Assembly: GCA_040755415.1 (NCBI GenBank)
Contig: JBFMAZ010000013.1
Location: forward strand, 10,877-74,876
Length of the DNA: 64,000 nucleotides
Source of the DNA: Thermodesulfobacteriota bacterium
GTDB taxonomy: Bacteria; Desulfobacterota; QYQD01
Direction: 5' to 3'
In this document: positions 2,729 to 56,102 of the stretch, piece by piece
Layout of the letters: each line of letters starts with the position of its first letter
Position numbering within the stretch: position 1 is the stretch's first letter
Made by a program: the position numbers and the translations under genes
The notes under the pieces: generated by a model
Databases searched by the model: none
Told to the model about the DNA's origin: nothing
Seen by the model: only the letters and a program-made list of their open reading frames with translations

Positions 2729-2890
2729 GTAACACTTTAGCTGTTTGAAAAGAGCTAGTCGTCCAGAAAACGGCGCCTCGAAAATCCCCCTTAATCCCCC
2801 TTTTTCAAAGGGGGAAATGTTTCTCCTCCCTTTGGAAAAGGGAGGTTGGGAGGGATTTTAAAATACTTTTTCAAACAGCTAAACTGATAC
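2729..2890. mobile_element. MITE copy 1 (162 bp). TIR GTAACACTTTAGCTGTTTGAAAAG / CTTTTTCAAACAGCTAAACTGATAC; flanked by 8-bp direct repeat CAAATCTC.
   Basis: Same element recurs at 34540-34701, 60802-60994 and partially at 54486-54594. Internal hairpins CCCCCTTTTTCAAAGGGGG and CTCCTCCCTTTGGAAAAGGGAGGTTGGGAGG. Direct repeats CAAATCTC at 2721-2728 and 2891-2898. Confidence 0.8.
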
Positions 2891-2954: not shown

Positions 2955-3323
2955 TCAATAGCTAACATCGAAGGCATTCTTGATAAGTTCAAATTGCGGC
3001 TGGCCATCTACAAACTGGATGGTCACCACGTCGAAGCGGGCTCGCTGGCCGAAGAGCCCCTTCTTATTTATAAACGCCAGGGCCGTCCTGGACAACTGTC
3101 TTTTTTTGTGGGCAGTTATGGCCTCTTTGGGATCTCCATACCTGAAGGAGCCACGGGATTTAACCTCTATGAATACCAGCGCCCCATCTTCTTCCGCAAT
3201 AATGTCCAGCTCTCCCATGCGGTCCCGGTAGTTTCTGGCCAGAATAAAATAGCCGGCTTTTTTGAGAAATTTTATGGCTAAGTCCTCTCCTTTTTTTCCG
3301 GCGAGTATCTTATCCAACCACAT
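2955..3323 (-). CDS. yraN: YraN-family (UPF0102) endonuclease
   Basis: 122 aa, ...GEDLAIKFLKKAGYFILARNYR...GELDIIAEEDGALVFIEVKSR..., typical UPF0102, and the usual position next to rnhB. Confidence 0.85.
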   Translation of the reverse strand: MWLDKILAGKKGEDLAIKFLKKAGYFILARNYRDRMGELDIIAEEDGALVFIEVKSRGSFRYGDPKEAITAHKKRQLSRTALAFINKKGLFGQRARFDVVTIQFVDGQPQFELIKNAFDVSY

Positions 3324-11923: not shown

Positions 11924-12077
11924 GAGGCTCTTGCAAAAGTCTTATGATCGGGTTGCCGTCATTCCGGCGAACTCCGGATCAGGTCCGGGGCAGGCGCCGG
12001 AATCCAGTGATTCCGACCAGATTAAGACACTACTGGACACCGGTTTTCACCGGTGTGACGACTTTTGCAAGAGGCTC
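11924..12077. repeat. TIR element family 3, copy 1: TIR GAGGCTCTTGCAAAAGTC...GACTTTTGCAAGAGGCTC, internal GNRA-tetraloop hairpin TTCCGGCGAA(C/A)xCCGGAA and CACCGGTtttcACCGGTG hairpin
   Basis: Near-identical ends and core at 25969-26099; partial related hairpin at 17552-17631. Gives spurious small ORFs ending ...VTPVKTGVQ on minus strand. Confidence 0.7.
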
Positions 12078-18952: not shown

Positions 18953-20635
18953 ATGTCACTATTTATATTGTTACGAAACTGTATGGTGATCGGGTTGCTC
19001 CTGTTGCTTGCGGCCTGTAGCGGATTCATGACCACAGGGGGAACCCCTGTGGCCTGGGTGGATGGCGTACCGGTAACTGAGGGAGATCTAAAAGAGGCAC
19101 TAAAGATAACCCATCGCACTGAGGCCGTACGGCCGGGTGAGCATCCCGATCTTATGGTTTATGTCAATAAATTGATCGATGAGCGCCTGATTGTCCAGGA
19201 GGCCTATCGGATGGGACTGGACAAGGACCCCTGGGTGCAAAATAAAATGCACGAGTATAAACTCAGGGAATCCGTGGTACGCCTCTATAAAGAAGAGGTT
19301 CAAGACAGGATCAGGATGAGCGATGACGAGATGCGGCGATTTTATAACGAGCAGATGGAGGAGGCACATATTCGCCAAATAACACTGGGGACTGAGGAAG
19401 AAGCCCTGAATATACGGGACCAGATTGAGGCTGGTTCTGATATGGCCGCTCTCGCCCGGGAGCATTCTATCGATATATTTAAAGATAAGGGGGGCGACCG
19501 TGGGTTTTTACGCCGGTGGCAGCTCCCGGAATCAGTTAGAGATGCGGCTTTCTCCCTCAAGGATGGCCAGATAGCACCCGTGATTAAGACTTCCTCCGGT
19601 TATCAAATAATAAAAATTGAGGAGAAGAAGGCCGCACCAGAGAAAAATTTAGAGGAGATAAGGCGGGTTGCGGAGAAATCACTGCGCAAGAAAAAAGAAG
19701 AGGCGTTAGGTCAGGAAGTTTTAAAGGGATATCGAAAGCAGGCCGATATAGTCATAAGCGGAGATTTATTGGCAGAGTTGCCGGTTTCTATTGATGCAGC
19801 AAAAGATGAAAAATGGGCCAAGGATGAACGGCCTATTGCAAAAATTGGAGAAGAAATATTGACGGTTGGCCAGTTCTGTCAACAGCTCAAAGATATGCCG
19901 GAGTCTAAGTTGGTTACCGACGATCCACTGGCCTTAAAGCGCAAGTTCATAGATAGCTGGATCGACCGCAAACTTGTAGATATAACTGCCTTGAATCGAC
20001 ATTATGAGCGGGATGAAGATTTCGGTCGTATGCTTAAGTATTATGAAGAATATTTACTAAAGAAGTTGTTTGCCCAGAAGGTTATATACCCGCAGATAAA
20101 GATTTCGGACGAACTTCTCAAAAATTATTACGACAACCACCGCGATAATTATCTTAAACCGGTTCAATACCGGATACGGCAGATTACTGTAACTGACGAG
20201 GCGCAGGCCCGGACCATCCTGGAACAACTGCGCGGGGGAGCTGATTTTGCCTGGCTGGCAAAAAATAAGTCCGAAGACGGCCTGGCTGAAAAGGGAGGAG
20301 ACAGAGGCTGGATTTCAGGAGATAGCCTACCTTCTTCCTTCGCTAAGGCTGTTTGCGACCTTAAGGTTGGGGAATTGAGCGACATATTTTCAGAAAACGG
20401 CGCATATTTTATCGTAAAGTTGGAGGCCAAATCCGATGTTGAATATGAGGACTTTGAACAAATAAAGGATGCCGTGCAAAAGGACTACGTCAAGGAAAAC
20501 TATGAGCAATTATGGACAAATTATGCCGGAGAGTTACGACAGGATGCTGAAGTCAGTATAAATACCCCCTTTATCCAGGAATTGGCGGAAAGATTCTTGC
20601 CTTCAAAAAAGGCCTCGTCCCTTGACAAGCAATGA
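18953..20635 (+). CDS. SurA/PpiD-like periplasmic chaperone lipoprotein with two parvulin PPIase domains
   Basis: Start at MSLFILL... (AAAGGGG SD; lipobox LAAC). An upstream in-frame ATG at 18890 is possible. Parvulin signatures ...SSGYQIIKIEEKK and ...NGAYFIVKLEAK; SurA_N-like region. Confidence 0.75.
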   Translation: MSLFILLRNCMVIGLLLLLAACSGFMTTGGTPVAWVDGVPVTEGDLKEALKITHRTEAVRPGEHPDLMVYVNKLIDERLIVQEAYRMGLDKDPWVQNKMHEYKLRESVVRLYKEEVQDRIRMSDDEMRRFYNEQMEEAHIRQITLGTEEEALNIRDQIEAGSDMAALAREHSIDIFKDKGGDRGFLRRWQLPESVRDAAFSLKDGQIAPVIKTSSGYQIIKIEEKKAAPEKNLEEIRRVAEKSLRKKKEEALGQEVLKGYRKQADIVISGDLLAELPVSIDAAKDEKWAKDERPIAKIGEEILTVGQFCQQLKDMPESKLVTDDPLALKRKFIDSWIDRKLVDITALNRHYERDEDFGRMLKYYEEYLLKKLFAQKVIYPQIKISDELLKNYYDNHRDNYLKPVQYRIRQITVTDEAQARTILEQLRGGADFAWLAKNKSEDGLAEKGGDRGWISGDSLPSSFAKAVCDLKVGELSDIFSENGAYFIVKLEAKSDVEYEDFEQIKDAVQKDYVKENYEQLWTNYAGELRQDAEVSINTPFIQELAERFLPSKKASSLDKQ

Positions 20636-22635
20636 AGGCTAATGATATGGTGCTGCGCATGAAAAATTCGAAATTCGAAGCTCGAAATTCGAAAATTAAA
20701 GTAGTTGGCCTTGTACTATTTGTCTGCCTTATCATTTTAAGTTGTGCTGAGGCGCCGACCAGGCCTCAGCGAGGTTTCGCTCCGAAGGCATGTCTGGACT
20801 GCCATGGCAAGAAGTTCGATGATCTCAAAAAACCTTATGTCCATGGTCCGGCGCTCGAAAAAGACTGCGAAGTATGCCATGATCGCCATGGTAAGATACC
20901 CATCAGGACATTCAAAAAACCGGGTGCCGCATTGTGTTATACCTGCCATGCCGCGGAAAAACTAGGGATAAGTGAAAAAGCTGCGGTTCATACCCCTATA
21001 AAAGAAGGCAAATGTATACCCTGTCATGCCCCGCATGCCGGTGACAATAAACTCTTCTTAAAAAAGCAGGGTAATAGCCTTTGCTTTGATTGTCACCAGG
21101 AGACTCTATTTAAAGGCGCTAAAATCCATGCCCCGTTAGAAAAGGGGTGCTTGACCTGCCACAGACCTCATGCCTCACCCCAGGCCGATCATCTTGTCAA
21201 ACCAGAGACAGAGCTTTGCCTTGGTTGCCACAACTCAGGGAGCGCCTCTTTCCGGACAGCCCATCAGAATTACCCAGTGGAAAAGGCGCATTGTACGGGA
21301 TGCCATGACCCGCATGCCACGGCCCATCCTAAGTTACTAAGACCTTCTATACATAAGCCGCTGGCGGAAAAAAGGTGTAGTTCCTGCCACCGTCCATCTG
21401 CAGATAAAGAGCCGCTAAAGGCCGTGGCTCAGGATGGCGCCCTTTGCTACTCCTGCCACGAGCAGGTGGCCAGGCGATTTGAACAGGTCTGCCGGCATAA
21501 GCCCATACAAGAGGGCAAGTGCCTGGTCTGCCATAGTCCCCATGCCACGGATTTTGTCCCCCAGTTGGTTAAGGATGTCAACTCTCTTTGTTTTGCCTGT
21601 CATAAAGAGAAGGCAGGTTCTTTGAAGGCAGGTGTGCCGCATGCGCCACTCAAAAAGCAGGGTTGTACGGCCTGTCATGATGCACATGCCTCGGCTAATA
21701 CTAGATTGCTCAAGATGGAAAAAGAGAAGCTCTGTCTCGAGTGTCATAAGAAGACAGAGGAAGAACTAAGGGCAACTTATGTACATAAACCCCTTGCATC
21801 TGATCAGTGTACGACCTGCCACAACGCCCATGGATCCAATTATAAGGGAATGCTGGGCGTATCCCCGGAGGCCCTGTGCTACAGTTGTCATAAGGAGGCC
21901 AGAGATAAATTTTATAAGGCATACGTTCATACCCCGGTAAGTAAAAAGAATTGTACAGGATGTCATAAGCCGCATGGAGCAAATTATAAATCTCTTCTCA
22001 AGCATTCCAAGGTGGATATTTGTTTCTCCTGTCATGTAGAAATGAAGAACATAGGTGCAGAAGGCAAGGGTCATCCGCCATTTATGAGGAAGGAATGCCA
22101 GGGCTGTCACGACCCCCACGCCAGTAATTATCCGATGCAGCAAGCGCTTCCACCTTCTGAACTCTGTCTGAGGTGTCATAAGAACTTCGTGGCCAAAGGA
22201 AAAGACGCCCCGGCCGTACATCAGCCGGTAAAGGAAGGAAACTGTATCAGTTGCCATAGCCCGCACGGTACAAAACTGGCCAGTTTGCTCCTCAATCAAA
22301 CCGGTGAGTTGTGTCTGTCCTGTCATGGCCAGCTAAAGGAGGCGCTGCGTTCGGCCCGGGGGCATACGCCGGTCAAGCAAGGTAATTGCCGCGGCTGCCA
22401 TCTGCCCCATTACGGAGAAGAAAAAGGGCTCTTGGCCAACCGGGATCCATTCCTCTGTCTCCAGTGCCATGCTGCCGATAAACCTACCAATATCAAGGCG
22501 CATCAGGGATTGCTCCAAAACACCAGCTTATGTCTGGAGTGTCATGAGCCGCATATATCCGCCAAAGGGAGTTTGTTGAAGAAAAATGAGCACAGTCCTT
22601 TTGCCAAGAGAGATTGCAGGCTGTGTCATAAATAA
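20632..22635 (+). CDS. Multiheme c-type cytochrome, 26 CxxCH motifs, probable lipoprotein (lipobox ILSC)
   Basis: 26 CxxCH counted by eye, many as CxxCHxPH(A/G) paired-CxxCH/c7-like repeats. N-terminal 20 codons overlap a cgaaattcgaa repeat (20661-20696); alternative start ATG 20659. Confidence 0.85.
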   Translation: MKANDMVLRMKNSKFEARNSKIKVVGLVLFVCLIILSCAEAPTRPQRGFAPKACLDCHGKKFDDLKKPYVHGPALEKDCEVCHDRHGKIPIRTFKKPGAALCYTCHAAEKLGISEKAAVHTPIKEGKCIPCHAPHAGDNKLFLKKQGNSLCFDCHQETLFKGAKIHAPLEKGCLTCHRPHASPQADHLVKPETELCLGCHNSGSASFRTAHQNYPVEKAHCTGCHDPHATAHPKLLRPSIHKPLAEKRCSSCHRPSADKEPLKAVAQDGALCYSCHEQVARRFEQVCRHKPIQEGKCLVCHSPHATDFVPQLVKDVNSLCFACHKEKAGSLKAGVPHAPLKKQGCTACHDAHASANTRLLKMEKEKLCLECHKKTEEELRATYVHKPLASDQCTTCHNAHGSNYKGMLGVSPEALCYSCHKEARDKFYKAYVHTPVSKKNCTGCHKPHGANYKSLLKHSKVDICFSCHVEMKNIGAEGKGHPPFMRKECQGCHDPHASNYPMQQALPPSELCLRCHKNFVAKGKDAPAVHQPVKEGNCISCHSPHGTKLASLLLNQTGELCLSCHGQLKEALRSARGHTPVKQGNCRGCHLPHYGEEKGLLANRDPFLCLQCHAADKPTNIKAHQGLLQNTSLCLECHEPHISAKGSLLKKNEHSPFAKRDCRLCHK

Positions 22636-22680
22636 CATGGATATCTACCGCAGAGGCACAGAGGCCGTATAGATAAATGA

Positions 22681-22740
22681 CAAATATCAAAATCCAAAGT
22701 TCAAATCAATGACAAAGTTCAAATGATGAAACATTGACAA
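22681..22740. repeat. AT-rich motif copy (AAAGTTCAAATCAATGACAAAGTTCAAATGA) upstream of 16-heme cytochrome
   Basis: Near-identical 30-mer to 18779-18808. Confidence 0.55.
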
Positions 22741-22778
22741 TACCCGGAAGGTTTATGGAGTGGAGAGATATTAACAAG

Positions 22779-24011
22779 ATGAAGGTTAAGTTAGCTATAT
22801 GGCCTTTACTGGGCTTTTTTGCCTGGATACTTACGGGCGAGGCGGCGGCAAAGCCTTCGGCTGATACCTGTTATAGCTGCCATAGCCAGTTAAAAAAGGA
22901 ATTTGCGCAAAAAACCATACATGATCCAGTAGACAAGGGCCAGTGCACAGCCTGTCACAATCCTCACGCCACGAACCAGGATAAGTTTTTAAAAGACGAG
23001 ATAAACAAGGTCTGTTATAGTTGTCACAAGGGATTGGCACAGGAACTGGGGCGTGGGCACGTTCATTCCGTACTTTTGCATGATAAATGCACGCGCTGTC
23101 ACAGTCCCCATGCCTCTGCACACAGAAATCTGCTGGCTAAAGAAGCAAATAGTTTATGCCTGGACTGCCATGAAGGTGTAAAAAAGCAGCTTGCCTTTTC
23201 CTACTCTATACCGCCCTTCCGGGAGAAGAAGTGCCTTTCTTGTCACGAACCACATGTCTCCAGGGAGGAAGGGTTGGTAAGGAAAAGTATAAATCGTCTT
23301 TGCCAGGACTGTCATGGCATTAAGTGCAAGAGTAAAGGCGTTTCTCTGGCCTTTGCCCTCCAGGATGCCGACTGCACTAACTGCCATAATCCCCACGCCT
23401 CAAACAAGAAAGGGGTTTTCAACCCTGTAGCCCATCAGTCTTTCGTTGATCAAAAATGTGAGGCATGCCACGATGCGATTGCAGCAAATAAGCCCCTTAC
23501 GACAAAGCTAACCGGCCGGGCATTATGCTTTGATTGCCATGGCAATAAGAAAGATATGCTATCTAAGATATACGTTCACGCCGGAGGAGGTACCTGCACC
23601 ACCTGTCATAATCCTCATGCCTCGCAGGATAAGGGCCTTATCTGGAAGAAAGAGAAATGGCTCTGCATCTCCTGCCATTCCGACACAGACCGGCGTGAGA
23701 AGGCATCCATTGAGAAGCAAAAAGACATCCGCTGTACGGCCATAATAGAAGGGAAATGCTCCCATTGTCATGATCCACACGCCGCAAATATGCCCCGTTA
23801 CTTTAAAGGCGATGGCGTTGATATCTGTGTAAGTTGCCATAAAAGAGAACACAGCTTATCGCATCCCCTCAGGGAAAAATCTATAGATCCGCGGACTAAC
23901 CAGCCGACTTATTGCACTACCTGTCACGGAATGCATACTGCTGAAAACAAATTTATGCTCTATTTCGACCGCAAAAGGGAACTGTGTATAGAGTGTCATA
24001 AAAGGGATTAA
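22779..24011 (+). CDS. Multiheme c-type cytochrome, 16 CxxCH motifs, secreted
   Basis: Start at MKVKLAIWPLLGFFAWILTGEAAA (signal peptide); 16 CxxCH; same repeat architecture as upstream 26-heme protein. ORF-track start 22734 also possible. Confidence 0.85.
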   Translation: MKVKLAIWPLLGFFAWILTGEAAAKPSADTCYSCHSQLKKEFAQKTIHDPVDKGQCTACHNPHATNQDKFLKDEINKVCYSCHKGLAQELGRGHVHSVLLHDKCTRCHSPHASAHRNLLAKEANSLCLDCHEGVKKQLAFSYSIPPFREKKCLSCHEPHVSREEGLVRKSINRLCQDCHGIKCKSKGVSLAFALQDADCTNCHNPHASNKKGVFNPVAHQSFVDQKCEACHDAIAANKPLTTKLTGRALCFDCHGNKKDMLSKIYVHAGGGTCTTCHNPHASQDKGLIWKKEKWLCISCHSDTDRREKASIEKQKDIRCTAIIEGKCSHCHDPHAANMPRYFKGDGVDICVSCHKREHSLSHPLREKSIDPRTNQPTYCTTCHGMHTAENKFMLYFDRKRELCIECHKRD

Positions 24012-25968: not shown

Positions 25969-26099
25969 GAGCCTCTTGCAAAAGTCTTGTAAATGGCGTT
26001 CTTGTCATTCCGGCGAAAGCCGGAATCCAGTAATTTCAAGCAGTTTAGATACCTCTGGACACCGGTTTTCACCGGTGTGACGATTTTTGCAAGAACCTC
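25969..26099. repeat. TIR element family 3, copy 2
   Basis: GAGCCTCTTGCAAAAGTC...GTCATTCCGGCGAAAGCCGGAATCCAG...CTGGACACCGGTTTTCACCGGTGTGACGATTTTTGCAAGAACCTC; matches 11924-12077. Confidence 0.7.
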
Positions 26100-29003: not shown

Positions 29004-31391
29004 TTAGTTCTCAATTGTACCTATGGACTGAAGTGCGGTCCGGGCCTCTTTAAAAAGGGGATTAACCTTAAGCGCCTTTTGCCATTTTCTCCTAGCCTCA
29101 GCTATGTGTCCCATTTTTTCATAAACCAGGCCCAGATGATAGTAGATTTCGTGATCTTTTTTCATCCGTTGCTGTGCTTCTTTAAGATGGTGGAGGGCTT
29201 GGGGATAATTATTTTTGAGATAATAAATCCGCCCTACTGTCTTCCAATAGAGGCTGTTTTGGTGATCGAGTTCGAGCGCTTTTTGACATAATGTATGGGC
29301 AATTTCCAGGTCGTTTTTTAGTTCAGCATAAAGCATACCCAACCAACTGAAGGAAAAGGCGTCAGCAGGGTTGCTCTTGACCGCCCTTTTAAATGCAGCC
29401 ATAGCATCTTTTTTTAGATTCAAGCCGAGATAAGCCTCACCCAGGTATCGGTATATATACCCCTTAGCATCCGGGCACTTCGCTGCTTTTTGAAAATAAC
29501 CAACGGCCTCCGTCCCTCTTTTCTGTTCTTGCAATAACTTTCCCATCTGAAAGAGGATCTCAAAATGATTCCCATTTAATGAAGCCGCCTGTTGCAGGGC
29601 CAAAAAGGCCTTGTCCGGGATGCCGGTTTTGAGATAGGCCAAACCCAGATTGTATTGGGCCATAAAATTATCTTTTTCCAGGGACAGGGTCTTCTCAAAA
29701 CAGGAAATGGCCCTTTTATACCATTTAAGCCGGGCATAGCAAACGCCCAGGCTATTTAAGAGATTGACGTCTTGCGGATCGAGGGACAGCCCCTTTTTAT
29801 ATTCCATTATGGCGCCATGGATATGGCCTGCATTGAAGAGCATATCCCCGCTTATATTGAGACTTACGGCATTAAAGGCGGTAATGGTGTCCGGGCCAAA
29901 GAAATCAGTATGTACAAGCGCCTTGTAGGCGTTAAAAGGGATCTCCTCTTTTTCATAATTGAGCGCCGGATAGCCGGCCAGGCCCATAGATACGGTCCTG
30001 CCGCACTCTTCCTTGATCTGAGATTTCAAATGCTTTCCTGCAAGAAGGGCCTCTTCCGGGCTAATATCCGGCAGGTAAATGAAAAAGGAGTCCTCAGTAC
30101 ACGGAAGGATCGACTGCCCCGGCGATAACCAGGAGTTTATCTTTTCCAGAAAAGGACTATAATCCCCTCCCCCATCCCGGGCGTCATATCTTGCCAATAT
30201 CAAGGAAAACTTCTTTGTTTTTCTCCACTTCCTTCCCAGTTTATCCGTAACCCGATGAATATTTACTGCCATTTTAAGGCTGATGGTCTCTTCGAGCTCC
30301 CGGGAAAAACAAAGAGGATAATCGAACCTGCCTTTGGCGACGGCCAGAGTCTCTTTACCTTTCTCGATAATAAGATCATATAACTTTTCTGGCGGCAGAT
30401 TCCGGCATTTTTCGTCTGAAAATCCCCCCAACCCCCCTTTACTAAAGGGGGGTGAGGGGGGATTATTTTCATTGTCCTTTGTGTCACTACACGACTTGTG
30501 TGTTTCGTTGCTGTTTATCGGATAGGTCAAAAGCCCTATAGCCGCCTTAATCCCATCCTTAAGGCGTCTTTTATTAAAAAGTTCAAATATAGCCAGACTT
30601 ATATTGCGGCCTCTCTCCTCATCACAAAAGGGCAGGACCAGGGCTAGGGTTGACTTATCTCTGCGGAACAGGCAGGAAAGAGCGATGCCTTTCAGCTCAT
30701 TTTTTATGGCCGGGATAATATCCGCCCAGAATTCACTGCGGCGGCCCGGTTTAAGGCTCGGGTTAGGGCGGCGCTTTAATGGATGATTAAAGAGTATCTC
30801 CATGAAAATTATTGAAAAGTTGGTATGCAAAGCAGGCAAATCCGGAAAGCCCTCTAGTTCGGATACAGGTTTGGTATCCCTGCCCTTCTGGCCCGTAGTT
30901 ATAAGCCGGATAAGGGTATCTTTAAAAAGTCCCGGGGCTAGTGCGCCGCTTTCCGCATCCGTAAAATAGGTCTTATATACCCGGACTTTTTCCAGGATTA
31001 ATTGGCTGAGCTTCGACCATTGGCTGGATAGTATATCTTTGTCAAATGTCCCGTCTGTATCTTTAAGTACAGCTATGCCGAGGGGCTTATTTTGCCATAT
31101 AAAAGGCAAGGATACGGAGTCGGTGTTTTTTTCAACGACAGGGACACTATTTGAAAAGACCTCTTTTATCTGAAAATCCCCCCATCCCCCCTTTAGCAAA
31201 GGGGGGTGAGGGGGGATTATTTTCATTTTGCTTTCGGTAATCAGGGGGCTAAGGATATCCGGCGCACAGTTCGCAGGCCAAAGGAGTACATCCTGGGCCT
31301 GAAAGAGAAGGCTTAAGTCATTCCTTATATCTTCCTGGAAAAGGAATATATCCTGTGGTTCTAATGAAGCTATGGAGGGCCTTTTTTCCAT
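29004..31391 (-). CDS. TPR-repeat protein (C-terminal ~300 aa of TPRs) with N-terminal uncharacterised region carrying two in-frame palindromic-element insertions
   Basis: Multiple 34-aa TPR-like repeats (…AISCFEKTLSLEKDNFMAQYNLGLAYLKTG…); insertions at 30422-30463 and 31177-31217 translated as NNPPSPPFSKGGLGGFSD and KIIPPHPPLLKGGWGDFQ. Confidence 0.75.
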   Translation of the reverse strand: MEKRPSIASLEPQDIFLFQEDIRNDLSLLFQAQDVLLWPANCAPDILSPLITESKMKIIPPHPPLLKGGWGDFQIKEVFSNSVPVVEKNTDSVSLPFIWQNKPLGIAVLKDTDGTFDKDILSSQWSKLSQLILEKVRVYKTYFTDAESGALAPGLFKDTLIRLITTGQKGRDTKPVSELEGFPDLPALHTNFSIIFMEILFNHPLKRRPNPSLKPGRRSEFWADIIPAIKNELKGIALSCLFRRDKSTLALVLPFCDEERGRNISLAIFELFNKRRLKDGIKAAIGLLTYPINSNETHKSCSDTKDNENNPPSPPFSKGGLGGFSDEKCRNLPPEKLYDLIIEKGKETLAVAKGRFDYPLCFSRELEETISLKMAVNIHRVTDKLGRKWRKTKKFSLILARYDARDGGGDYSPFLEKINSWLSPGQSILPCTEDSFFIYLPDISPEEALLAGKHLKSQIKEECGRTVSMGLAGYPALNYEKEEIPFNAYKALVHTDFFGPDTITAFNAVSLNISGDMLFNAGHIHGAIMEYKKGLSLDPQDVNLLNSLGVCYARLKWYKRAISCFEKTLSLEKDNFMAQYNLGLAYLKTGIPDKAFLALQQAASLNGNHFEILFQMGKLLQEQKRGTEAVGYFQKAAKCPDAKGYIYRYLGEAYLGLNLKKDAMAAFKRAVKSNPADAFSFSWLGMLYAELKNDLEIAHTLCQKALELDHQNSLYWKTVGRIYYLKNNYPQALHHLKEAQQRMKKDHEIYYHLGLVYEKMGHIAEARRKWQKALKVNPLFKEARTALQSIGTIEN
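30422..30463. repeat. 42-bp GC-rich palindrome inserted in-frame in TPR gene (copy 2)
   Basis: ATCCCCCCAACCCCCCTTTACTAAAGGGGGGTGAGGGGGGAT; near-perfect inverted repeat with central TTTACTAAA. Confidence 0.75.
31177..31217. repeat. 42-bp GC-rich palindrome inserted in-frame in TPR gene (copy 1)
   Basis: ATCCCCCCATCCCCCCTTTAGCAAAGGGGGGTGAGGGGGGAT. Confidence 0.75.
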
Positions 31392-33608: not shown

Positions 33609-34539
33609 CTATCCTTAACGTAAAAGATTATTTAGTAGCCCTATAAATGGGAATATTTCTTTGTTGAATTGGTACGTTACTCATTTTACATAGGTATGTC
33701 AAGATGTTATCACTTTTATGAGTGCCGGAAGGCATAATCTATCCCTCAAGACCTTAGTATTATTGAAGACATGCAAGAAGTGCCGGAGGGATAACCTATG
33801 GCCTGAATTTCGTGTTACGGTTTATATGCTGTAGAATTTGGTCGTAAATTCTGCTAGGATGTGACGGTGAGATCCGCCTCCGGCGGCATGGGACACGGCC
33901 TGGGTAACGCGCTGCAAGGCATATTAACCATAAGGAATTGTTTGACAATGGACAACGGCAGGATTCGCAAAAGAGATTCGGCAAGGCTGGTGTGGGATAG
34001 TAAGCCCCGCCGTGCGCCGAATCCCAAAGATATAGAGTTTCAGACCGCAGAGGTGGTCATCCTCAACCCTGTACATAGAGGACAGCTCCCTTTATCATTT
34101 AAAGACGGAATCTTGGGTGAGGCGGACATTGACAAGCAGAAGATGAACCGGCTCATCTGGGGTGACAACCTCCTGGCTATGCAGGCCCTGTTGGCCCAGG
34201 GATATGAAGGGAAGATAAACCTTATCTATATCGACCCGCCCTTTGACTCCAAGGCTGATTATTCCCACAAAATGACCATTCCCACTAATCCCTCTGGGAG
34301 AGGGCAGGGTGAGGGTCTTGAATTCACCAAAGAACCCTCGGTCATAGAGCGTCTCGCCTACAAAGACACCTGGGCCGGAGGCACGGACTCTTACCTTGAT
34401 ATGCTCTATCCCAGATTGCAGTTGATGAAAAGGCTGCTGGCAGAGGATGGGAGTATATATGTGCATACAGATTGGCATGTAGGGCATTATGTGAAGGTGC
34501 TGATGGATGAGGTGTTTGGGAAGGAAAATTTTATTAGCG

Positions 34540-34701
34540 GTAACACGTTAGCTGTTTGAAAAGAGCTAGTCGTCCAGAAAACGGCGCCTCGAAAATCCCC
34601 CTTAATCCCCCTTTTTCAAAGGGGGAAATGTTTCTCCTCCCTTTGGAAAAGGGAGGTTGGGAGGGATTTTAAAATACTTTTTCAAACAGCTAAACTGATA
34701 C
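34540..34701. mobile_element. MITE copy 2 (162 bp) inserted in mod; 8-bp flanking direct repeat TATTAGCG
   Basis: TIRs GTAACACGTTAGCTGTTTGAAAAG / CTTTTTCAAACAGCTAAACTGATAC. TATTAGCG at 34532-34539 and 34702-34709. Confidence 0.85.
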
Positions 34702-35665
34702 TATTAGCGAAATAGTATGGAAACGAACTGGCGCGAGGTCGATGTCAAAATATATTAATGCGATTCATGACGCAATTTACATTTATGCAAGAAATATCAA
34801 CAAAATGCTGTGGAACGGATATGTTACTGACTTTTCTGATGAGTATAAAAAGCGTTATTACAGGAATAAGGATGAACGTGGTAGATATTTTCAAGATACC
34901 TCTTTGATAGCTCCGGGCGAAGGATATTTATATGAGTGGAAAGGTATTGCAAAGCGCTGGAGATACAAAAAAGAAAAGATGGAGGAATTAGAAAAAGAAG
35001 GGAGACTTATCTATACAAATAAAGGGGGTGCCAGATATAAAAGATATTTAGATGAAATGCCCGGAGTTGCTCCTCAAGATATATGGTTAGACATCCCGCC
35101 TGTAAACTCACAGGCTTTAGAAGATACTAATTTTGACACCCAAAAACCCGAAGCCCTCCTCGAACGCATCATCAAAGCATCTTCCAATGAGGGCGATCTT
35201 GTCGCTGACTTTTTTAGCGGCTCAGGCACAGCACTTGCTGTTGCGGAAAAACTTAACCGTCGCTGGATTGGCTGCGAGCTTGGGAAGGTGGGCATACAGG
35301 TCACCCGCGCAAGGCTTGTAGAACAGCAGGCCAGGCCCTTCCTTATTGAGAACATAGGCAACTATCAAAGGGAGATGATCTATCTCACCGGCGGCAGGAT
35401 TTATGAGATGCAGCATCTCATCCTCAAGCTTTACGGCGCAACTCCCCGTGATAAATTAAGCGGACTTGGGATAAGAAAGGGTGAAGACGGCATAGAGGAG
35501 CTGGTTTATGTTGGTTACCCGGACCGGCCGGTTACCGCAAGCAAGGCGGAGGAACTGGCCATCCAGGCGCAAAAACTAGACGGCAGGGGCTATAAGAGAC
35601 TCATAATCCTGGGCTGGGATTATGAATACAACTATCATCAGGCGCTTGAATCAAGAAAGAAGGCA

Positions 35666-35707
35666 ATCCCCCCTCACCCCCCTTTACCAAAGGGGGTAAG
35701 GGGGGAT
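35666..35707. repeat. 42-bp GC-rich palindrome inserted in-frame in mod (encodes IPPHPPLPKGVRGD)
   Basis: ATCCCCCCTCACCCCCCTTTACCAAAGGGGGTAAGGGGGGAT. Confidence 0.75.
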
Positions 35708-36294
35708 TTTGTTGAGGTTATAAGCCGGGACATCCCGCCGGATATATACGATTATTTAAAAAAGGCAAGGACAGAGGAAGACATCGAAGCCCTTTCAGAC
35801 AAGGTTACCTTCTATGAAAGGCCATACCTGAAGATGGATGAACCAAGGATAAGCGATTTAAAAGACGGCAAGGTTGAGATTAGCCTGTCCATGAAACGCT
35901 ACGTCCTAATGGACATTCCCATAAGCCAGACCTCCAAGAAAGGGCAGGAAGACTATGCCGCCCTGATGAAGATAGCAAAGGATAATTTTGCGGTGCTTAT
36001 CGACTACTGGGCGGTTGACTGGGACTATGACGGTTTTACCTTCAAGAGCCAGTGGCGGGCATTCCGGGGCAACGGCAAAAAGGCCAGGACCGTTACCACC
36101 GAGGCAAAGGAGATTTTGGAAAAGAAAAGACGCATGATTGCTGTGAGGGTGGTGGATATATTCGGGAATGATGCCGGGGCTACGGTTGATTTACAATCCT
36201 GAAATAAGCAAGGGGATTATTGCATGATTTATGCGTAATCTGCAATAAGGGCCGATGTTATTGCAATATTCATCAATAAGCAAAAGAGGCTGGT

Positions 36295-37468: not shown

Positions 37469-40294
37469 ATGGCCAAGAAAAAGAATCAAGAGGCATTTTC
37501 TCAGTTATATCTCGCTAATGCCCTAGAAGGCGAGGTTCAGGCATGGGTAGAACAGGGCTGGTCTGGGGTTACTCAGACCACCCTGGAGCTTTTCAATTAC
37601 TGGTTCAAAAGGGATGAAGATGCCACGGAAAGGTTTCACCCCTGCCAGCAGAGGGCCATTGAGACCGTCGTATATTGCCATGAAATCCTTCAAGCCAAGA
37701 CCCTGCCGGAAGTATTTGAGAGGGTAGCCCCGGAGGCTATTTATCAACACCTTCCATTGAAACAGGAAGTGGAGACCATCCCCTTCCCTAAGTATGCCTT
37801 GAAGATGGCAACCGGATCCGGGAAGACATGGGTGCTGGCTGCCCTCCTTGTCTGGCAATATTTCAATAAGCTTAAGGATGAGCGTCCTGGAAGTTATTCT
37901 TACCGTTTTCTGGTTGTGACCCCTGGGCATGAGGTCTTAAACAGGCTTCTTGATTCCTTTAAAGGGAAAAGGGACTTAAAGACAGACAATAGATTGCCTG
38001 AGACATCGGATTATAAACGCCCTCTGTTTATGCCCGAAGGGTCACTCTGGCGTGAAAGATTTCATCTGGATATCCTTGAGCCTGATGATGTTAAGCCTAA
38101 CACAACACCACCTGACGGTCCCTTTGTCTTTATAACCAACTGGCAGCAGTTCAGGCTTAAGTCCTCTGTATCCAGTTTATGGGATCAATTCACAGGCGCT
38201 GATGTTGAGGAAATGCCGAGAGGTGAGGTAATAGCCGATTTTCTCTCTGAGTATCCTGACCTTGTGATAATGAATGATGAGGCCCACCATGTGCATGGGA
38301 AGAAGTCTGCAAAAGGTGAAGAACTTGTCTGGCGGCAGTTTATGAATGTGCTTTATGCGAGGTTGAAGGAAAACCACAAAAAAGAACCGGGCGTATTTTT
38401 ACAGATTGATTACTCAGCCACCCCATTTTATGGAAGCGCAGAAAAAAGGGAATATTTCCCGCATATTATCTATAACTACGACCTGTTAAGCGCCATGCAG
38501 GACATGTTGGTAAAACAGCTTTTCCTTGAGCAACGACAGGCTATTGCCGGGGAATCTTTAGAAGAACTCGACTTTAGGGCTGAAAGATATGAGGCAGAAG
38601 GCGGCCATAAGAGGGGTGAAATAAAGGCCCTCTCAGCAGGACAGAAATTGTTGCTTGATATCGGCAGGAAAAAACTTGAACAACTTGCTGTTGAATTTAA
38701 AAAGAAGGGCATAACCAAAAAGCCCGTTATGATGGTCCTGTGTGAAGACACAACGGTTGCCGACCTTACAGCCGAGCATTTCGCGAGACTTACGGATGAA
38801 AACGGTCAGTATTACGATGGCACCAGGGCCCTCGTTATCCATTCCGACCTCCCTGGTAAGGAAATTGAAACAGCGAGAAAGAATCTCGACAGAATAGATA
38901 TAGATGATGATCCGCTAAGGATTGTCATTTCTGTTCTGATGCTCAGAGAAGGTTTTGATAAAAACAATATATGCGTTACCGTAGTCCTCAGGGCAACAGA
39001 GGCTGACTTATTGCTTGAGCAAATAGTCGGCAGAGGCTTGCGGCTGATGTTTCCGTCTTATGAATATCCGGAATTACAGGACGCAAAAGCAAAGGCTTAT
39101 CACCAAATAAAAAGAAAGAAAAATCCCTCCAACTCCTTTGATTTTCTTTTTGTCGTAGAGCATCCGAGATTTATAGAGTTTTATAATAAGCTTAGAGAGC
39201 AGGGATATGTATTCGGAGTGGGCGATACGAGTAAAGAGACATCAACCGGCGATATTATCCCTGTCGATGCCGTAACAGAGAGGATTCCTCTTTTTGATAT
39301 CGCCTGGCCCATACAGGTCTTTGACGAAGGAAAGATGCCCGAACTTTCGCAGATTGATATTAAAAGCCTTCCTAAGTACCGGGTTGACTTTAATCAACTA
39401 AAAAAATACCTCTCAAAGCTCATTATCCAGGAAACTCACGTGCAAACCGGCGCAAAGACAAGGGCCTGGAAATTGGACAATGAGTACTTTGACTACTCAT
39501 TTTTCTTAAGACAGGCATCAAAGGCCGTGGCTACGAGGGGAAAGACATCGATTCTTTCAGCAAAACAGGCGCAGATTGCCGAGACCATTGATGAGTATGT
39601 GTCAGAATATTGTTTTGGCAAACCCATAGATTTCTCCTCTCCGGAAAACTATCCGGTTCTCAACTATCAGCCTGTCTTCGACCATGTTGTCGAAGCGGCG
39701 AGCAACTCTATTATCAAACTCATCGAAGGCCATAAATTTGAAGTTAAGAAGGGTACATGGGGAAGACTATGCGATGTCCCGCGCATTATGGTAAGAGAAA
39801 GTAAATCGGTTGATACCGAAAGAAGCATTTACCCTAAAAACGGCTATCAACCAAAAGGTGGGGGATTTGAAAGAGATTTTATGCGGGAGGCGCTCAACAA
39901 CTCCGCCGATGTGCTTGCCTTTGCAAAGTTGGATAGACGGCATAAACTTAAAATTACCTATAGAGATGAGACAGGTATATTGAGAAATTACGAGGTTGAC
40001 TTTATAGTTAAGGCACCGGACAAAATATACCTTGTTGAAACAAAGGCGGACAAAGATATTGATAACCCTAATGTCGCCGTCAAGGTGCAGGCTGCTACCG
40101 CCTGGTGTGAGCAGGCGTCATTGGTGCCGCCACCGGAAGGTATGAACCAACCCCAACAATGGGAATATCTTATTCTTTCCGAAAGCCTGTATAAAAGTAA
40201 TAGGGGACTTTCGTTTGAAGCGCTTGTGCCTTTCTGTAAAGGGCTTAGGGATAATATTATTGCCAGGGCAAAAAGCCAACTATTTTTGTTCTAA
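37469..40294 (+). CDS. res: Type III restriction enzyme Res subunit (SF2 helicase + C-terminal PD-(D/E)xK nuclease)
   Basis: Walker A KMATGSGKTWV, DEAH box VIMNDEAHHV, motif VI QIVGRGLRL, C-terminal ...YEVDFIVKAPDKIYLVETKADKD nuclease-like motif. Confidence 0.8.
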   Translation: MAKKKNQEAFSQLYLANALEGEVQAWVEQGWSGVTQTTLELFNYWFKRDEDATERFHPCQQRAIETVVYCHEILQAKTLPEVFERVAPEAIYQHLPLKQEVETIPFPKYALKMATGSGKTWVLAALLVWQYFNKLKDERPGSYSYRFLVVTPGHEVLNRLLDSFKGKRDLKTDNRLPETSDYKRPLFMPEGSLWRERFHLDILEPDDVKPNTTPPDGPFVFITNWQQFRLKSSVSSLWDQFTGADVEEMPRGEVIADFLSEYPDLVIMNDEAHHVHGKKSAKGEELVWRQFMNVLYARLKENHKKEPGVFLQIDYSATPFYGSAEKREYFPHIIYNYDLLSAMQDMLVKQLFLEQRQAIAGESLEELDFRAERYEAEGGHKRGEIKALSAGQKLLLDIGRKKLEQLAVEFKKKGITKKPVMMVLCEDTTVADLTAEHFARLTDENGQYYDGTRALVIHSDLPGKEIETARKNLDRIDIDDDPLRIVISVLMLREGFDKNNICVTVVLRATEADLLLEQIVGRGLRLMFPSYEYPELQDAKAKAYHQIKRKKNPSNSFDFLFVVEHPRFIEFYNKLREQGYVFGVGDTSKETSTGDIIPVDAVTERIPLFDIAWPIQVFDEGKMPELSQIDIKSLPKYRVDFNQLKKYLSKLIIQETHVQTGAKTRAWKLDNEYFDYSFFLRQASKAVATRGKTSILSAKQAQIAETIDEYVSEYCFGKPIDFSSPENYPVLNYQPVFDHVVEAASNSIIKLIEGHKFEVKKGTWGRLCDVPRIMVRESKSVDTERSIYPKNGYQPKGGGFERDFMREALNNSADVLAFAKLDRRHKLKITYRDETGILRNYEVDFIVKAPDKIYLVETKADKDIDNPNVAVKVQAATAWCEQASLVPPPEGMNQPQQWEYLILSESLYKSNRGLSFEALVPFCKGLRDNIIARAKSQLFLF

Positions 40295-45334: not shown

Positions 45335-45470
45335 GATGGTGGGGGCACTCAGCAGTCAGCGTGGAGAAATTTGCTGAAAGCTAATAGTTTGGGTATATTA
45401 ATAAAAAATATGACTTTAGCTTTTTGAAACAGTTATTAAGTCCGAAGGCTGACTGCTTCGAGATCAGGGC

Positions 45471-45630
45471 CAAATCCGAAATTCGAATATCGAAATTCGA
45501 AGCAAATCCAAATTCCTAATGTCTCAATGTTCAAAACCGCAGCATGAACAATTCGTTTTGGCAATTCGGATTTTGATCATTTGATATTGTTTCGGGATTC
45601 GTGCTTCGGATTTCGAATTTGAAATCACGC
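45471..45630. repeat. AT-rich palindromic element family 2 (cgaaat/ttcgaa words), diverged copy
   Basis: ccaaatccgaaattcgaatatcgaaattcgaagc ... gggattcgtgcttcggatttcgaatttgaaatc arms around ~70-bp centre. Confidence 0.65.
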
Positions 45631-45721
45631 TGTATCCTGGAATCCAGCGTATTTCGTGGCCCATAGCGTTTCAAAAACCTAAACTGTTACAATAAAAATT
45701 GATTATTAATTCGGTGTAAAG

Positions 45722-50472: not shown

Positions 50473-50633
50473 AAATTCTAAATCCGAAACACGAAACTCG
50501 AAACAAATTCAAATGACCAAATGAGGGCAATGACCAAAACAAAAGATCGAAGAAGTTGCTGATAGACGTTTCAAACATTCGATATTTGAATTTCGGATTT
50601 GTTTCGGATTTCGGATTTCGATATTCGGATTTA
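50473..50633. repeat. AT-rich palindromic element family 2, full copy, in rpsB-tsf spacer
   Basis: gaaattctaaatccgaaacacgaaactcgaaacaaattcaaatgaccaaatga...gtttcaaacattcgatatttgaatttcggatttgtttcggatttcggatttcgatattcggattt; ~85% identical to 55908-56025. Confidence 0.75.
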
Positions 50634-50713
50634 GGTGCAGTTTTGCCACTCTGTGCGCTTCGTGGTTAATCTTTTGATAATAATATCTCAGTTGTTAAGG
50701 GGGAAGAACATAA

Positions 50714-52732: not shown

Positions 52733-53503
52733 TTGCCTCGCTCAGATAGCCCGTTGTTAGAACCAACAAAATTGCCCCGGCATTTAGCCATAATCATGGA
52801 TGGAAATGGACGCTGGGCAAAATTGCGTTCTCTACCCCGTATTGCCGGTCACCGGCAAGGTGCTGAATCTGTACGCGAGGTAGTCCGGGCTTGCCGGGAA
52901 ATAGGGATCAAGTTTCTTACCTTATATGCCTTTTCTCAAGAAAACTGGCAACGTCCGCCGGCTGAAGTCAAGGCCCTTATGGGTCTCCTTTCTGATTATT
53001 TAGAAAAAGAACTGGCGGAGATGCTCGCCAATGGGATATCGCTAAGGACTGTCGGGGATATAAAAAGGCTCCCCCCTCCTATTTATGAGCTATTGTTGCG
53101 TACGATTAAACAAACGAAATCTAATCAGGATATGGTTCTCACCCTGGCCTTAAGTTACAGCGGCCGTGATGAGATCGTGCGTGCCGCGCGGGAGATGGCC
53201 CGCAGGGTAAAACAGGGCATCTTACAACCAGATGAAATAAGCGAAGAATATATAAGCCAGACCCTGGATACCGCCACCGCCGGCCTACCTGATCCAGACT
53301 TCCTTATAAGAACCAGCGGCGAATATCGTATAAGTAATTTTCTCATCTGGCAAACGGCCTACACGGAAATTTATATCACCGCCGTCTTATGGCCAGACTT
53401 CCGTAGAGAGGACCTTATACAGGCACTTCTGGATTACCAGGGAAGAGAGCGGCGTTTTGGCCTGACCAGTGAACAGATTGAAAGCGCCCATGCAGCACCT
53501 TAA
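52733..53503 (+). CDS. uppS: Isoprenyl transferase (undecaprenyl-diphosphate synthase)
   Basis: HLAIIMDGNGRWA..., ...FSQENWQRP..., C-terminal ...ERRFG. Confidence 0.9.
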   Translation: MPRSDSPLLEPTKLPRHLAIIMDGNGRWAKLRSLPRIAGHRQGAESVREVVRACREIGIKFLTLYAFSQENWQRPPAEVKALMGLLSDYLEKELAEMLANGISLRTVGDIKRLPPPIYELLLRTIKQTKSNQDMVLTLALSYSGRDEIVRAAREMARRVKQGILQPDEISEEYISQTLDTATAGLPDPDFLIRTSGEYRISNFLIWQTAYTEIYITAVLWPDFRREDLIQALLDYQGRERRFGLTSEQIESAHAAP

Positions 53504-54296
53504 ACGTATAATAACCGCTCTGATTGCTACGCCCCTTCTAATAGCCATTATATGGTACGGGCCCAGGTCTGTTTTTTTGTTGGTGATTCTGGCCACGGTA
53601 GTGATTAGTTTGCTGGAGTACTACGCCCTGGCCAGGAGAACTGATCTCTCCCTCCCGGTTTATCTCGGCATCTTGTTAGGCGGCCTCATCGTCCTTTCCA
53701 GTTATAACTTTTCCTTCCCCTGCACCCTGGCCATGCTTTTCTTAGTCACGGCCTCGAGTCTTGCATACTATTTGTTCACTTATGAGCCTCATCCCAAGGT
53801 CATTCATTCAATGGGCATCTTCATTTCTGGTCTGGTATATGCGGCCTTTTTTCTATCCCACCTGGTTCTTATAAGACACCTGGCCATGGGACGTATCTGG
53901 ATCTTGTTCCTCTTGGCCGTAGTCTTTGCAGGTGATGCCGGCGCTTACTGCGTGGGCGTTCTCTTGGGACGTCGCAAGCTTTATCCGCGCGTAAGCCCGG
54001 GAAAGACCATAGAAGGAGCTATCGGGGGACTGGCGGCCAGTATCGGCGCAGCCTATCTCATGAGGATCTATTTTATCCCCTGGATGACTGTGAGACAGGT
54101 TATTTTTCTGGCCCTTTCCCTGGGGATTGCCGCTCAAATTGGAGACCTTGTGGAGTCTATGTTTAAACGGTCTGCTCAGGTGAAAGACTCAGGGAAACTC
54201 TTTCCAGGGCATGGGGGGATGCTGGATCGCATAGATGGGGTTATCCTGGCCGCACCCGTCCTGTTTTACGAGCTGGTGTTTTTCATCCGGCCATAA
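53469..54296 (+). CDS. cdsA: Phosphatidate cytidylyltransferase
   Basis: Multi-TM; C-terminal CTP-transferase signature ...SMFKRSAQVKDSGKLFPGHGGMLDRIDG.... Confidence 0.9.
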   Translation: MNRLKAPMQHLKRIITALIATPLLIAIIWYGPRSVFLLVILATVVISLLEYYALARRTDLSLPVYLGILLGGLIVLSSYNFSFPCTLAMLFLVTASSLAYYLFTYEPHPKVIHSMGIFISGLVYAAFFLSHLVLIRHLAMGRIWILFLLAVVFAGDAGAYCVGVLLGRRKLYPRVSPGKTIEGAIGGLAASIGAAYLMRIYFIPWMTVRQVIFLALSLGIAAQIGDLVESMFKRSAQVKDSGKLFPGHGGMLDRIDGVILAAPVLFYELVFFIRP

Positions 54297-54360
54297 GCTG
54301 GTTGTGAATTATATATCGATGTCATTGGCTTAGAGCGGGTGGAGCGATTTTTCTAATAAT

Positions 54361-54700
54361 TTCGAAATCCGAAGCACGAAATACGAAACAAATTCAAATG
54401 CCTAAAATACAAAATTCAAAATATAATTTGGAGTAACATTTTAGGTTTTTGAAAAATATACCTAAGCAAGGCGCTATAAGGGCCAAAATCCCCCTCAATC
54501 CCCCTTTTCCAAAGGGGGAAGTGTTTCTCCTCCCTTTGGAAAAGGGAGGTTGGGAGGGATTTAAGAATACTTTTTCAAACAGCTAAACTGATACAATTTG
54601 GAAGATCGCGCCCTTGGTTCGCTGAAATTGAATAAGGTTTTGAAAATTTGATATTTGAATTTCGGATTTGTTTCGGATTTTGATATTCGATATTCGAATT
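54361..54700. repeat. Composite: family-2 AT-rich palindrome arms (54361-54425 and 54646-54700) with a 5'-truncated MITE (54486-54594) nested at its centre
   Basis: Left arm tcgaaatccgaagcacgaaatacgaaacaaattcaaatgcc...; right arm ...tttgaatttcggatttgtttcggattttgatattcgatattcgaa; centre carries aaaatccccctcaatcccccttttccaaaggggg...ctttttcaaacagctaaactgatac. Confidence 0.7.
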
Positions 54701-54739
54701 TTTTAAAATATATTAGCTTAGAAGGGGCGGGGCGGCCTT

Positions 54740-55909: not shown

Positions 55910-56025
55910 AAAATTCGAAATCCGAAGCACGAAACTCGAAACAAACTCAAATGACCAAATGAAAGCAATGACTAAAACGAAAAATCGAAGGCGTTGCTGA
56001 TGGACGTTTCGAACATTCGATATTC
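55908..56025. repeat. AT-rich palindromic element family 2, copy in dxr-rseP spacer
   Basis: gaaaaattcgaaatccgaagcacgaaactcgaaacaaactcaaatgaccaaatgaaagcaatgactaaaacgaaaaatcgaaggcgttgctgatggacgtttcgaacattcgatattcggattt. Confidence 0.75.
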
Positions 56026-56102
56026 GGATTTGGTCGCGGCTATGCCGCGCTGTGTACTCTGTGGTTAGGCTTTGAAATACCGTGTGTAGGGAAAGAGGAT
56101 AG

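Follow-up and report, generated by a model that had tools for sequence, protein, structure and literature searches.

The contig JBFMAZ010000013.1 of a Thermodesulfobacteriota bacterium (GenBank assembly GCA_040755415.1) carries, within the 64-kb stretch analyzed here (contig positions 10,877 to 74,876, referred to as the window), five copies of a short non-coding repeat with inverted ends, one of which splits a mod-like DNA methyltransferase gene. We regard this repeat as a MITE, a transposable element of miniature size with inverted repeats at its ends. The copies, all on the + strand, are numbered 1, 2, 3, 4 and 5 and start at window positions 2729, 34540, 54433, 60802 and 45408, respectively. 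Copy 1 (2729-2890; 162 bp) lies between a DUF6178 gene (875-2656, - strand) and a UPF0102/yraN-like gene (2955-3323, - strand). Copy 2 (34540-34701; 162 bp) is located in the methyltransferase gene (33948-36202, + strand), downstream of which a ResIII helicase gene is found at 37469-40294. Copy 3 (54433-54594; 162 bp), which represents a separate subfamily, is placed between cdsA (53469-54296) and dxr (54740-55909), and copy 4 (60802-60994; 193 bp) between ilvN (60246-60737) and ilvC (61082-62083). Copy 5 (45408-45690; 283 bp) is diverged and only a probable member. Except for copy 2, all copies are intergenic.

Copies, duplications and the interrupted methyltransferase gene

At each of the five copies the repeat is enclosed by a perfect 8-bp direct repeat, i.e. 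a target site duplication (TSD), whose sequence differs from copy to copy: CAAATCTC for copy 1 (2721-2728 and 2891-2898), TATTAGCG for copy 2 (34532-34539 and 34702-34709), AATTTGGA for copy 3 (54425-54432 and 54595-54602), GTAATTTG for copy 4 (60794-60801 and 60995-61002) and, with 8/8 matching positions, AATAAAAA for copy 5 (45400-45407 and 45691-45698). An alignment of copies 1-4 is conserved precisely up to the termini of their terminal inverted repeats (TIRs); the 8-mers that adjoin the four copies bear no relation to one another. The ends GTAACACTTTAGCTGTTTGAAAAG and GTATCAGTTTAGCTGTTTGAAAAAG form left and right TIRs of about 24 bp that are alike at about 22 of 24 positions. A search of the window with the 24-nt left end, allowing up to three mismatches, returns seven matches against 0.00 expected from shuffled sequences; these are both ends of copies 1, 2 and 4 and the right end of copy 3, whose left end (GTAACATTTTAGGTTTTTGAAAAA) is more diverged. 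Copy 5, with the termini ATATGAC... (left) and ...CTGTTAC (right) and an AT-rich palindrome of the type called family 2 below in its interior, was recovered by a relaxed search for paired ends. An earlier note on this DNA, based on the sequence alone, had described four copies and given intervals for three of them; upon re-reading, the ends and flanking 8-mers of these three are exactly as claimed and all four copies are real, but the diverged fifth copy had been overlooked.

The copies differ in their degree of relatedness. Copy 2 deviates from copy 1 at a single nucleotide, and copy 4 is identical to copy 1 save for a 31-bp indel, which corresponds to an extra internal G/C hairpin module in copy 4. 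Copy 3, whose left half is diverged, shows an identity of about 80% in an ungapped and of about 91% in a gapped alignment, and copy 5 one of about 74% relative to copy 1. The three near-identical copies agree with the recent amplification proposed in the earlier note: judged by their similarity, copies 1, 2 and 4 probably reflect a recent burst in this genome. As single-stranded DNA, copy 1 folds with -37.1 kcal/mol (z = -6.3), the paired TIRs enclosing two hairpins of G/C runs.

Mobility is directly evident at copy 2. The N-terminal part of the mod gene (33948-34539) runs on into the MITE until a stop at 34559, and the C-terminal part extends from 34710 to 36202; the open reading frames (ORFs) on either side are 33861-34559 and 34742-36202. 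The insertion point falls inside the N6_N4_Mtase domain. Once copy 2 and one TSD are removed in silico, a 2172-nt ORF without internal stop is obtained, encoding 723 aa with a single unbroken N6_N4_Mtase domain (Pfam; residues 119-419) across the junction near residue 226. The junction FGKENFISEIVWKRTG aligns without gaps to intact full-length homologues, with up to 86-88% identity. Furthermore, a homologous gene from a groundwater metagenome (loci L185-L187) contains the octamer TATTAGTG once, between flanks that are 81-86% identical in nucleotides; it matches the left flank to ...AATTTTATTAG and the right flank from TATTAG..., with a 6-nt overlap. Because the octamer is single in this gene but double in the window, the two represent the empty and the occupied site, respectively. 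The interruption of the coding sequence claimed in the earlier note is confirmed. Copy 2 has knocked out the mod-like methyltransferase gene, of which the C-terminal fragment is annotated in NCBI as a 496-aa protein; look-ups with the exact protein sequences of ilvC and of the mod fragment returned no record. The disruption was probably tolerated because restriction of the Type III-like kind relies on Mod to recognize the target.

One could argue that the copies are repeats of the host, ancient and immobile – terminators, sites of protein binding, or REP/REPIN-type sequences spread by a RAYT (REP-associated tyrosine transposase, IS200/IS605-like) – and that the flanking 8-mers are coincidental or internal to the repeat. 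The element is indeed strongly self-complementary and mostly intergenic, and when copies 1 and 4 are scanned for promoters and terminators, weak terminator-like hairpins and no outward promoter are detected, for which reason we make no regulatory claim for the MITE. Yet the 8-mers are perfect and different at every copy in the window, while shifted control positions never reach 7/8; a conserved enzyme domain is broken by copy 2; and the homologous gene provides an empty site. The Rfam covariance models yield no match at gathering score anywhere in the window. REP/REPIN elements, which are mobilized by RAYT, form no TSD, as opposed to the MITE with its TSDs and, as described below, an insertion sequence with the same ends and TSD length that encodes a DDE transposase. 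We therefore consider an origin as immobile repeats scarcely credible.

The MITE family and an insertion sequence with the same ends

The element is widespread outside the window. A scan of genomes with the TIR pattern gives at least 62 loci and a scan of metagenomes 120 further ones, i.e. 182 loci together; the counts that follow refer to the matches listed. The hosts among the genome matches are mostly metagenome-assembled genomes (MAGs) of Deltaproteobacteria, Thermodesulfobacteriota, Desulfobacterales, Syntrophorhabdus and Syntrophaceae, and they include Nitrospinota, Candidatus Brocadia and another anammox Planctomycetia MAG. At least 115 short paired elements of 69-301 bp are present in MAGs and metagenomes. 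Their interiors vary widely, but the ends are conserved as GTA(A/T)CA-N-TTTAGC-N3-TTTGAAAA. Out of these 115 elements, 55 are flanked by 8/8 matching TSDs and 82 by TSDs with at least 7/8 matches, whereas in control comparisons shifted by 10-30 nt none reaches 7/8. In conjunction with the restored ORF and the empty site, these family-wide TSDs uphold the earlier note's reading of the repeat as a non-autonomous MITE with TIRs of about 24 bp and 8-bp TSDs made by a transposase. No match to the TIR pattern is obtained in the viral contigs scanned, and a BLAST search of plasmids returns matches to the G/C hairpin core alone (Acinetobacter, Planktothrix) and no insertion sequence (IS).

Close relatives of individual copies occur in other genomes: copy 1 has L050 (94% identity), copy 3 has L059 as its closest relative (likewise 94%), and the 193-bp copy 4 has L011, a 194-bp form from MAG273 (92%). 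As a side observation, both the 162-bp and the 193-bp form are present in MAG273 as well (L011 4034-4227; L050 1151-1310), with 92-94% identity; this paired occurrence could be due to recurrent indels, homogenization between copies, or transfer of both forms.

Several loci that resemble autonomous elements at first sight prove to be something else. Many contigs of the MAG Zod_Metabat.1176 (L027, L031, L038, L049, L055, L057, L062 and others) stop about 85 nt inside a 301-bp MITE; the repeats at these contig ends, considered as a candidate IS, were rejected as such. Given an assembly k of 87, the family is a major cause of assembly breaks in this MAG. The ends in L032, which are separated by an IS-like distance, belong to a pair of MITEs. 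In L058 (1643-3264), an intact sucC gene is enclosed by two inverted ends at a distance of 1622 bp, with no TSD; of its left and right segments, each corresponds to one end of the 301-bp MITE present in its MAG. Rejected as an autonomous element, too, this locus could be the outcome of recombination, of a chimeric assembly, or a gene between two truncated MITEs.

In none of the 62 genome loci is a transposase found between or beside the paired ends. In several metagenome loci, inverted ends are spaced about 2.35 kb apart and enclose two overlapping ORFs. These loci define an IS of 2.34-2.37 kb with near-identical TIRs of 24-27 bp (GTAACACTTTAGCTCTTTGAAAA), which read GTAACA(C/T)TTTAGCT(C/T)TTTGAAA in L077, L094, L099, L134, L176, L188, L189 and L190. 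The best-matching copy, L134 (GTAACACTTTAGCTCTTTGAAAAAAG), shares 24 of its 26 terminal positions with MITE copy 1. Perfect 8-bp TSDs flank the IS copies L077 (AAAGGATT), L189 (GTGATATT) and L190 (AAACGATT); the latter sits between an AAA_14 ORF and a DUF4143 ORF, apparently a single gene that has been split. An IS with matching TIRs and an 8-bp TSD, of the kind that the earlier note had proposed to look for in the genome, exists outside the window, in metagenomes of related environments. The second ORF comprises about 460 aa when read from the in-frame ATG after the stop of the first ORF; longer frames, of at most about 525 aa, overlap the first ORF. It matches the Pfam models DDE_Tnp_IS66 (PF03050) and zf-IS66 (PF13005) with E-values of 1e-37 to 1e-39, and the NCBIfam model NF033517 (IS66 family transposase) with 256 bits at a cut-off of 180. 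The IS1595, ISL3, IS256 and IS4 families suggested in the earlier note as the source of the mobilizing transposase are accordingly replaced by the IS66 family, in agreement with the domain models, the ends and the TSDs.

Homologues of this transposase number more than 1500, and the majority stand on contigs of about 2.3-2.5 kb, a pattern expected for a multi-copy repeat; those with a name are labelled as IS66 family transposase of a Deltaproteobacteria bacterium. The collected IS copies share 57-83% protein identity and unchanged ends, so that the clade is old and diverse. The first ORF encodes about 292-305 aa and matches PF14236 (DUF4338, 'DruA') with a score of about 130 bits. According to an interpretation in the literature, DUF4338 is an acetyltransferase domain of the GNAT-like type (PMC10853773). 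The DUF4338 ORF (L094 387-1274, L099 1341-2219, L188 1636-2514, L189 1597-2514, L190 1394-2272) is located upstream of the transposase in every full IS copy examined and overlaps it in the copies with called genes. With the PADLOC model for DruA, the similarity is weak (16 bits); any kinship of the ORF with the DruA protein of Druantia is very distant, and it is not called a defence gene. One of the IS copies also shows a weak match to the Mom family.

Based on these findings we propose, with a probability of roughly 90%, that the MITE is a non-coding, non-autonomous passenger of this IS66-family insertion sequence. According to this model, an IS66-type DDE transposase, supplied in trans and present in this genome now or formerly, would bind both ends of the MITE at their conserved TTTAGC and TTTGAAAA boxes; the target would be cut in a staggered manner, with 8 bp between the cuts, and subsequent repair would yield the 8-bp duplication.

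Three observations weigh against this proposal. First, neither protein of the IS is traceable in the window, where tblastn gives nothing but noise; there is no autonomous copy in it, as the earlier note had stated. Second, MITE and IS have only the TIRs in common, and similarity past about 26 nt is weak; the idea that an internal deletion in the IS gave rise to the MITE is therefore unsupported beyond the TIRs, and the MITE may have originated from solo ends. Third, of the five metagenomic IS copies found first, four lack matching TSDs, which we assume to be caused by chimeric assembly across repeats. One might attribute the mobility to another family producing 8-bp duplications (IS1595, ISL3, IS256 or IS6) and the match of the ends to convergence, given that several IS families are known to generate duplications of this length and a transposase is lacking beside the MITEs in the 62 genome loci. 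This is very unlikely in our view: the MITE and L134 have the same base at 24 of 26 terminal positions, the GTA(A/T)CA...TTTAGC...TTTGAAAA boxes recur in all members, and no other type of IS with these ends appears in the 182 loci listed.

The elements can be compared with established definitions. All features by which a MITE is recognized are present: a short non-coding sequence (162-283 bp in the window, below the size needed to encode a transposase), TIRs, a TSD of fixed length and variable sequence, an empty site, and the existence of an autonomous element with matching ends. The IS, in turn, displays the characteristics of the IS66 family, i.e. an IS66-type DDE transposase (TnpC), 8-bp direct repeats and ends starting with GTAA; the ISfinder description of the family agrees with such ends and repeats. 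The window harbors only the miniature non-coding derivative, and the IS itself is found elsewhere. The canonical IS66 layout tnpA-tnpB-tnpC is not present; instead, a DUF4338 ORF is followed by the transposase. The absence of tnpA and tnpB, the N-terminal zf-IS66 zinc finger, the GTAAC ends and the 8-bp repeat are shared with the ISBst12 group, whose members have a single ORF, unlike the IS described here with its additional DUF4338/PF14236 ORF. Hence, it is neither a canonical IS66 element nor a plain single-ORF member of the ISBst12 group. ISDge4 of Deinococcus geothermalis, which belongs to the ISBst12 group of the IS66 family, has the TIR GTAACTGCTCAGCA and an 8-bp direct repeat (PMC12898284).

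Two bacterial MITEs are similar in appearance. Chunjie, from the deltaproteobacterium Geobacter uraniireducens Rf4, is an AT-rich, strongly folding element of 178-235 bp that occurs between genes and within operons (PMC3184786), with 21-bp TIRs and 9-bp direct repeats (PMC3184786, PMC6042816). It resembles the present element in size and folding and is set apart by the described repeats, which here consist of TIRs of about 24 bp and 8-bp TSDs. Nezha from Anabaena/Nostoc comprises 130-170 bp and shows empty and occupied sites between related genomes (PMC3184786); its direct repeat is 10 nt long (CATTATCTAC; PMC6042816). The length of this repeat, as compared to 8 bp here, and the host phylum distinguish Nezha from our element. 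To our knowledge, no link between Nezha and the IS66 family is on record. A literature search of incomplete coverage disclosed neither an IS66-derived MITE nor a DUF4338 ORF inside IS66 elements, and a string search of the literature with the TIR sequence gave nothing relevant.

Target sites and host palindromes

The sequence logo of the TSDs is R-A-W-W-W-W-T-Y, symmetric and 77% AT. Some of these sites lie in long palindromes of the host. Copy 1 is situated within a palindrome of inverted heptamer arrays (2682-2940; palindrome-centre score 12), with a left arm at 2682-2701 (tcagctt/tcagcgg/tcagcg) and a right arm at 2918-2940. In the reconstructed empty site, which contains the apical mini-palindrome ATCTCAAATTTGAGAT, it occupies the apical stem of a long imperfect hairpin. 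The palindrome around copy 4 (60748-61054; arms 60748-60801 and 60995-61054; palindrome-centre score 11) places the insertion in the hairpin loop of the reconstructed empty site. With the MITE in place, this locus forms one continuous long hairpin in which the host stem is kept and extended (RNA fold -127 kcal/mol, z = -9.4). Copy 3 resides in an AT-rich family-2 palindrome (54358-54701), about 11 nt off its centre, and copies 2 and 5 lie away from any palindrome centre. The earlier note's statement that each copy was inserted at the centre of a pre-existing palindrome consequently stands for copies 1 and 4, but not for the other three.

The palindromes around copies 1 and 4 exemplify a more general type of host repeat. 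Tandem heptamer arrays (e.g. TCAGCNN, TGACNNN) in inverted orientation form long imperfect intergenic palindromes with AT-rich centres; they are seen at 2682-2701/2918-2940 and 60748-60790/61030-61054 of the window, and also in L002 (~7300), L033 (~3800) and L051 (~930). They resemble the heptamer repeats of heterocystous cyanobacteria.

The association with palindrome centres was quantified in three tests. In a midpoint test based on minimum-free-energy folds of 30 reconstructed sites, with a control that takes in coding DNA, 11 sites rank in the top decile for the midpoint of predicted pairs (binomial p ~9e-5). In a flank test, the sequences on either side of the TSD were aligned to each other within a band (offset of up to 6 nt); 16.5% of 79 sites score at least 8, compared with 3.5% of the positions nearby and 0.7% of those neighbouring sites that match the target consensus. 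In the third test, with the control confined to the same non-coding intervals, a score of at least 8 is reached by 19% of 58 sites versus 4.3% (binomial p ~3e-5), and a score of at least 10 by 12% versus 1.2% (binomial p ~5e-6); the control positions are non-independent, and these p-values are optimistic. The enrichment at palindrome tips is real, 4-10 fold relative to non-coding controls, yet it concerns a minority of insertions and is not obligatory.

This enrichment could mean that the target is chosen by structure, as the earlier note had supposed: the transposase would recognize extruded hairpins or cruciforms and insert at the apex, the palindrome centre being the true target. The central location of copies 1 and 4 in long palindromes of the host, and the near-central one of copy 3, fit this idea, as do centred insertions in L002, L015, L033, L051 and L135, the excess of centred palindromes at the 58 non-coding sites under both scores, and the independent midpoint test. 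However, more than 80% of insertions lack a centred palindrome, copy 2 is inserted in ordinary coding DNA and copy 5 off-centre, and the target 8-mer has a sequence consensus of its own. Palindrome tips are AT-rich and would be favored by a sequence preference alone. Moreover, an insertion at the apex spares the host stem, so that purifying selection could produce the same bias; survivorship is an equally good explanation. Structure-directed targeting is therefore possible but, in our estimation, doubtful.

We favor a passenger of the IS66-type element that prefers AT-rich, roughly symmetric 8-mers of the form R-A-W-W-W-W-T-Y. Such 8-mers are often located in the AT-rich tips of the heptamer-repeat palindromes filling the intergenic regions of these Thermodesulfobacteriota genomes, and insertion at a tip spares the host stem, which would account for an over-representation there that is not obligatory. 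Structure-sensing, AT-rich sequence preference and survivorship are not separable as causes of the bias with the present data.

Insertions at the apex or loop of repeated extragenic palindromes have precedents. IS1397 and ISKpn1 insert in the loops of BIMEs. IS1111 recognizes a palindrome in the QMITE2 REP of Coxiella (PMC10969869). Compared with the present element, these three are highly specific for one palindrome, while here 12-19% of the insertions are centred and the palindromes are unrelated in sequence.

G/C hairpin modules, further repeats and implications

The core of the MITE and the extra 31-bp segment of copy 4 share the architecture of a nested G/C hairpin module of about 40 nt, AATCCCCCC-N3-CCCCCCTTT-N4-AAAGGGGGG-N3-GGGGGGATT, which is also found outside MITEs. 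In the window, such modules stand in frame in coding genes, namely at 30424-30461 and 31178-31215 in an ORF on the - strand (29004-31391) and at 35668-35705 in the mod gene, and they translate as IPPHPPLLKGGWGDF, NPPSPPFSKGGLGGF and IPPHPPLPKGVRGDF; homologues lack them. The module of the mod gene takes the place of a short LKDKLK stretch in seven homologues. Beyond the window, modules outside MITEs are present in L092, L109, L150, L156 and L162, and similar sequences in plasmids of Planktothrix, inside an N-6 methylase coding sequence, and of Acinetobacter. Small dispersed repeats of cyanobacteria are reportedly comparable. The Rickettsia palindromic elements are palindromes inside protein-coding genes, too (PMC10969869); they resemble the module in their in-frame location, but are about 150 bp long as opposed to about 40 nt.

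The methyltransferase has a second variable site (alignment columns 141-170; mod residues ~112-125; window ~34280-34325), at which the homologues P0122, P0125, P0121 and P0129 carry PLxKGG-type insertions of varied length and others none. The alignment suggests that G/C hairpin modules may have been inserted recurrently at one and the same place.

A more far-reaching interpretation would be that either the IS66-type transposase senses structure and favors extruded palindrome tips, or the G/C module is an independent micro-element that inserts in frame in coding genes across phyla and that invaded the MITE or was captured by it. We consider these readings rather unlikely.

Other repeats of the window are mentioned for completeness. 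The AT-rich family-2 palindromes are intergenic, span about 120-200 nt (50473-50674, 55911-56073, 54358-54701, 45472-45625; also at 17410 and 20664), and have arms such as AAATCCGAAGCACGAAACTCGAAAC and GTTTCGGATTTCGGATTT. Given that copy 3 is located inside one of them and another (45472-45625) inside copy 5, nesting occurs both ways. A further repeat of about 130 nt is present in two copies with 78-88% identity (11947-12077 and 25993-26099); it contains the hairpins GGACACCGGTTTTCACCGGTGTGAC and TCATTCCGGCGAA-N-CCGGA, and similar pieces are found in L004 and L009. Finally, repeated CxxCH-encoding motifs (TGC-N6-TGCCA(C/T)) at 20632-24011 indicate genes for multihaem cytochromes, which fits a metal- or sulfur-respiring deltaproteobacterial host.

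The IS66-family origin of the mobilizing transposase and the presence of five copies extend the earlier note, whose MITE reading is supported and whose palindrome targeting is weakened. Our understanding of how MITEs work is unchanged by these results; the element is an ordinary kind of bacterial mobile DNA. The analysis names a transposase family for a repeat that is widespread in uncultured bacteria of the sulfate-reducer type, Nitrospinota and anammox Planctomycetes and that breaks their metagenome assemblies; annotators can now mask it. Furthermore, it explains the split annotation of the methyltransferase with its 496-aa fragment. The bias towards palindrome tips and the DUF4338 ORF are small, testable leads on the poorly studied mechanism of IS66 transposition; structure-sensing, if true, would be a mode of target choice so far undescribed for this family. 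For the organism itself, the loss of mod may alter the barrier of the host to foreign DNA.

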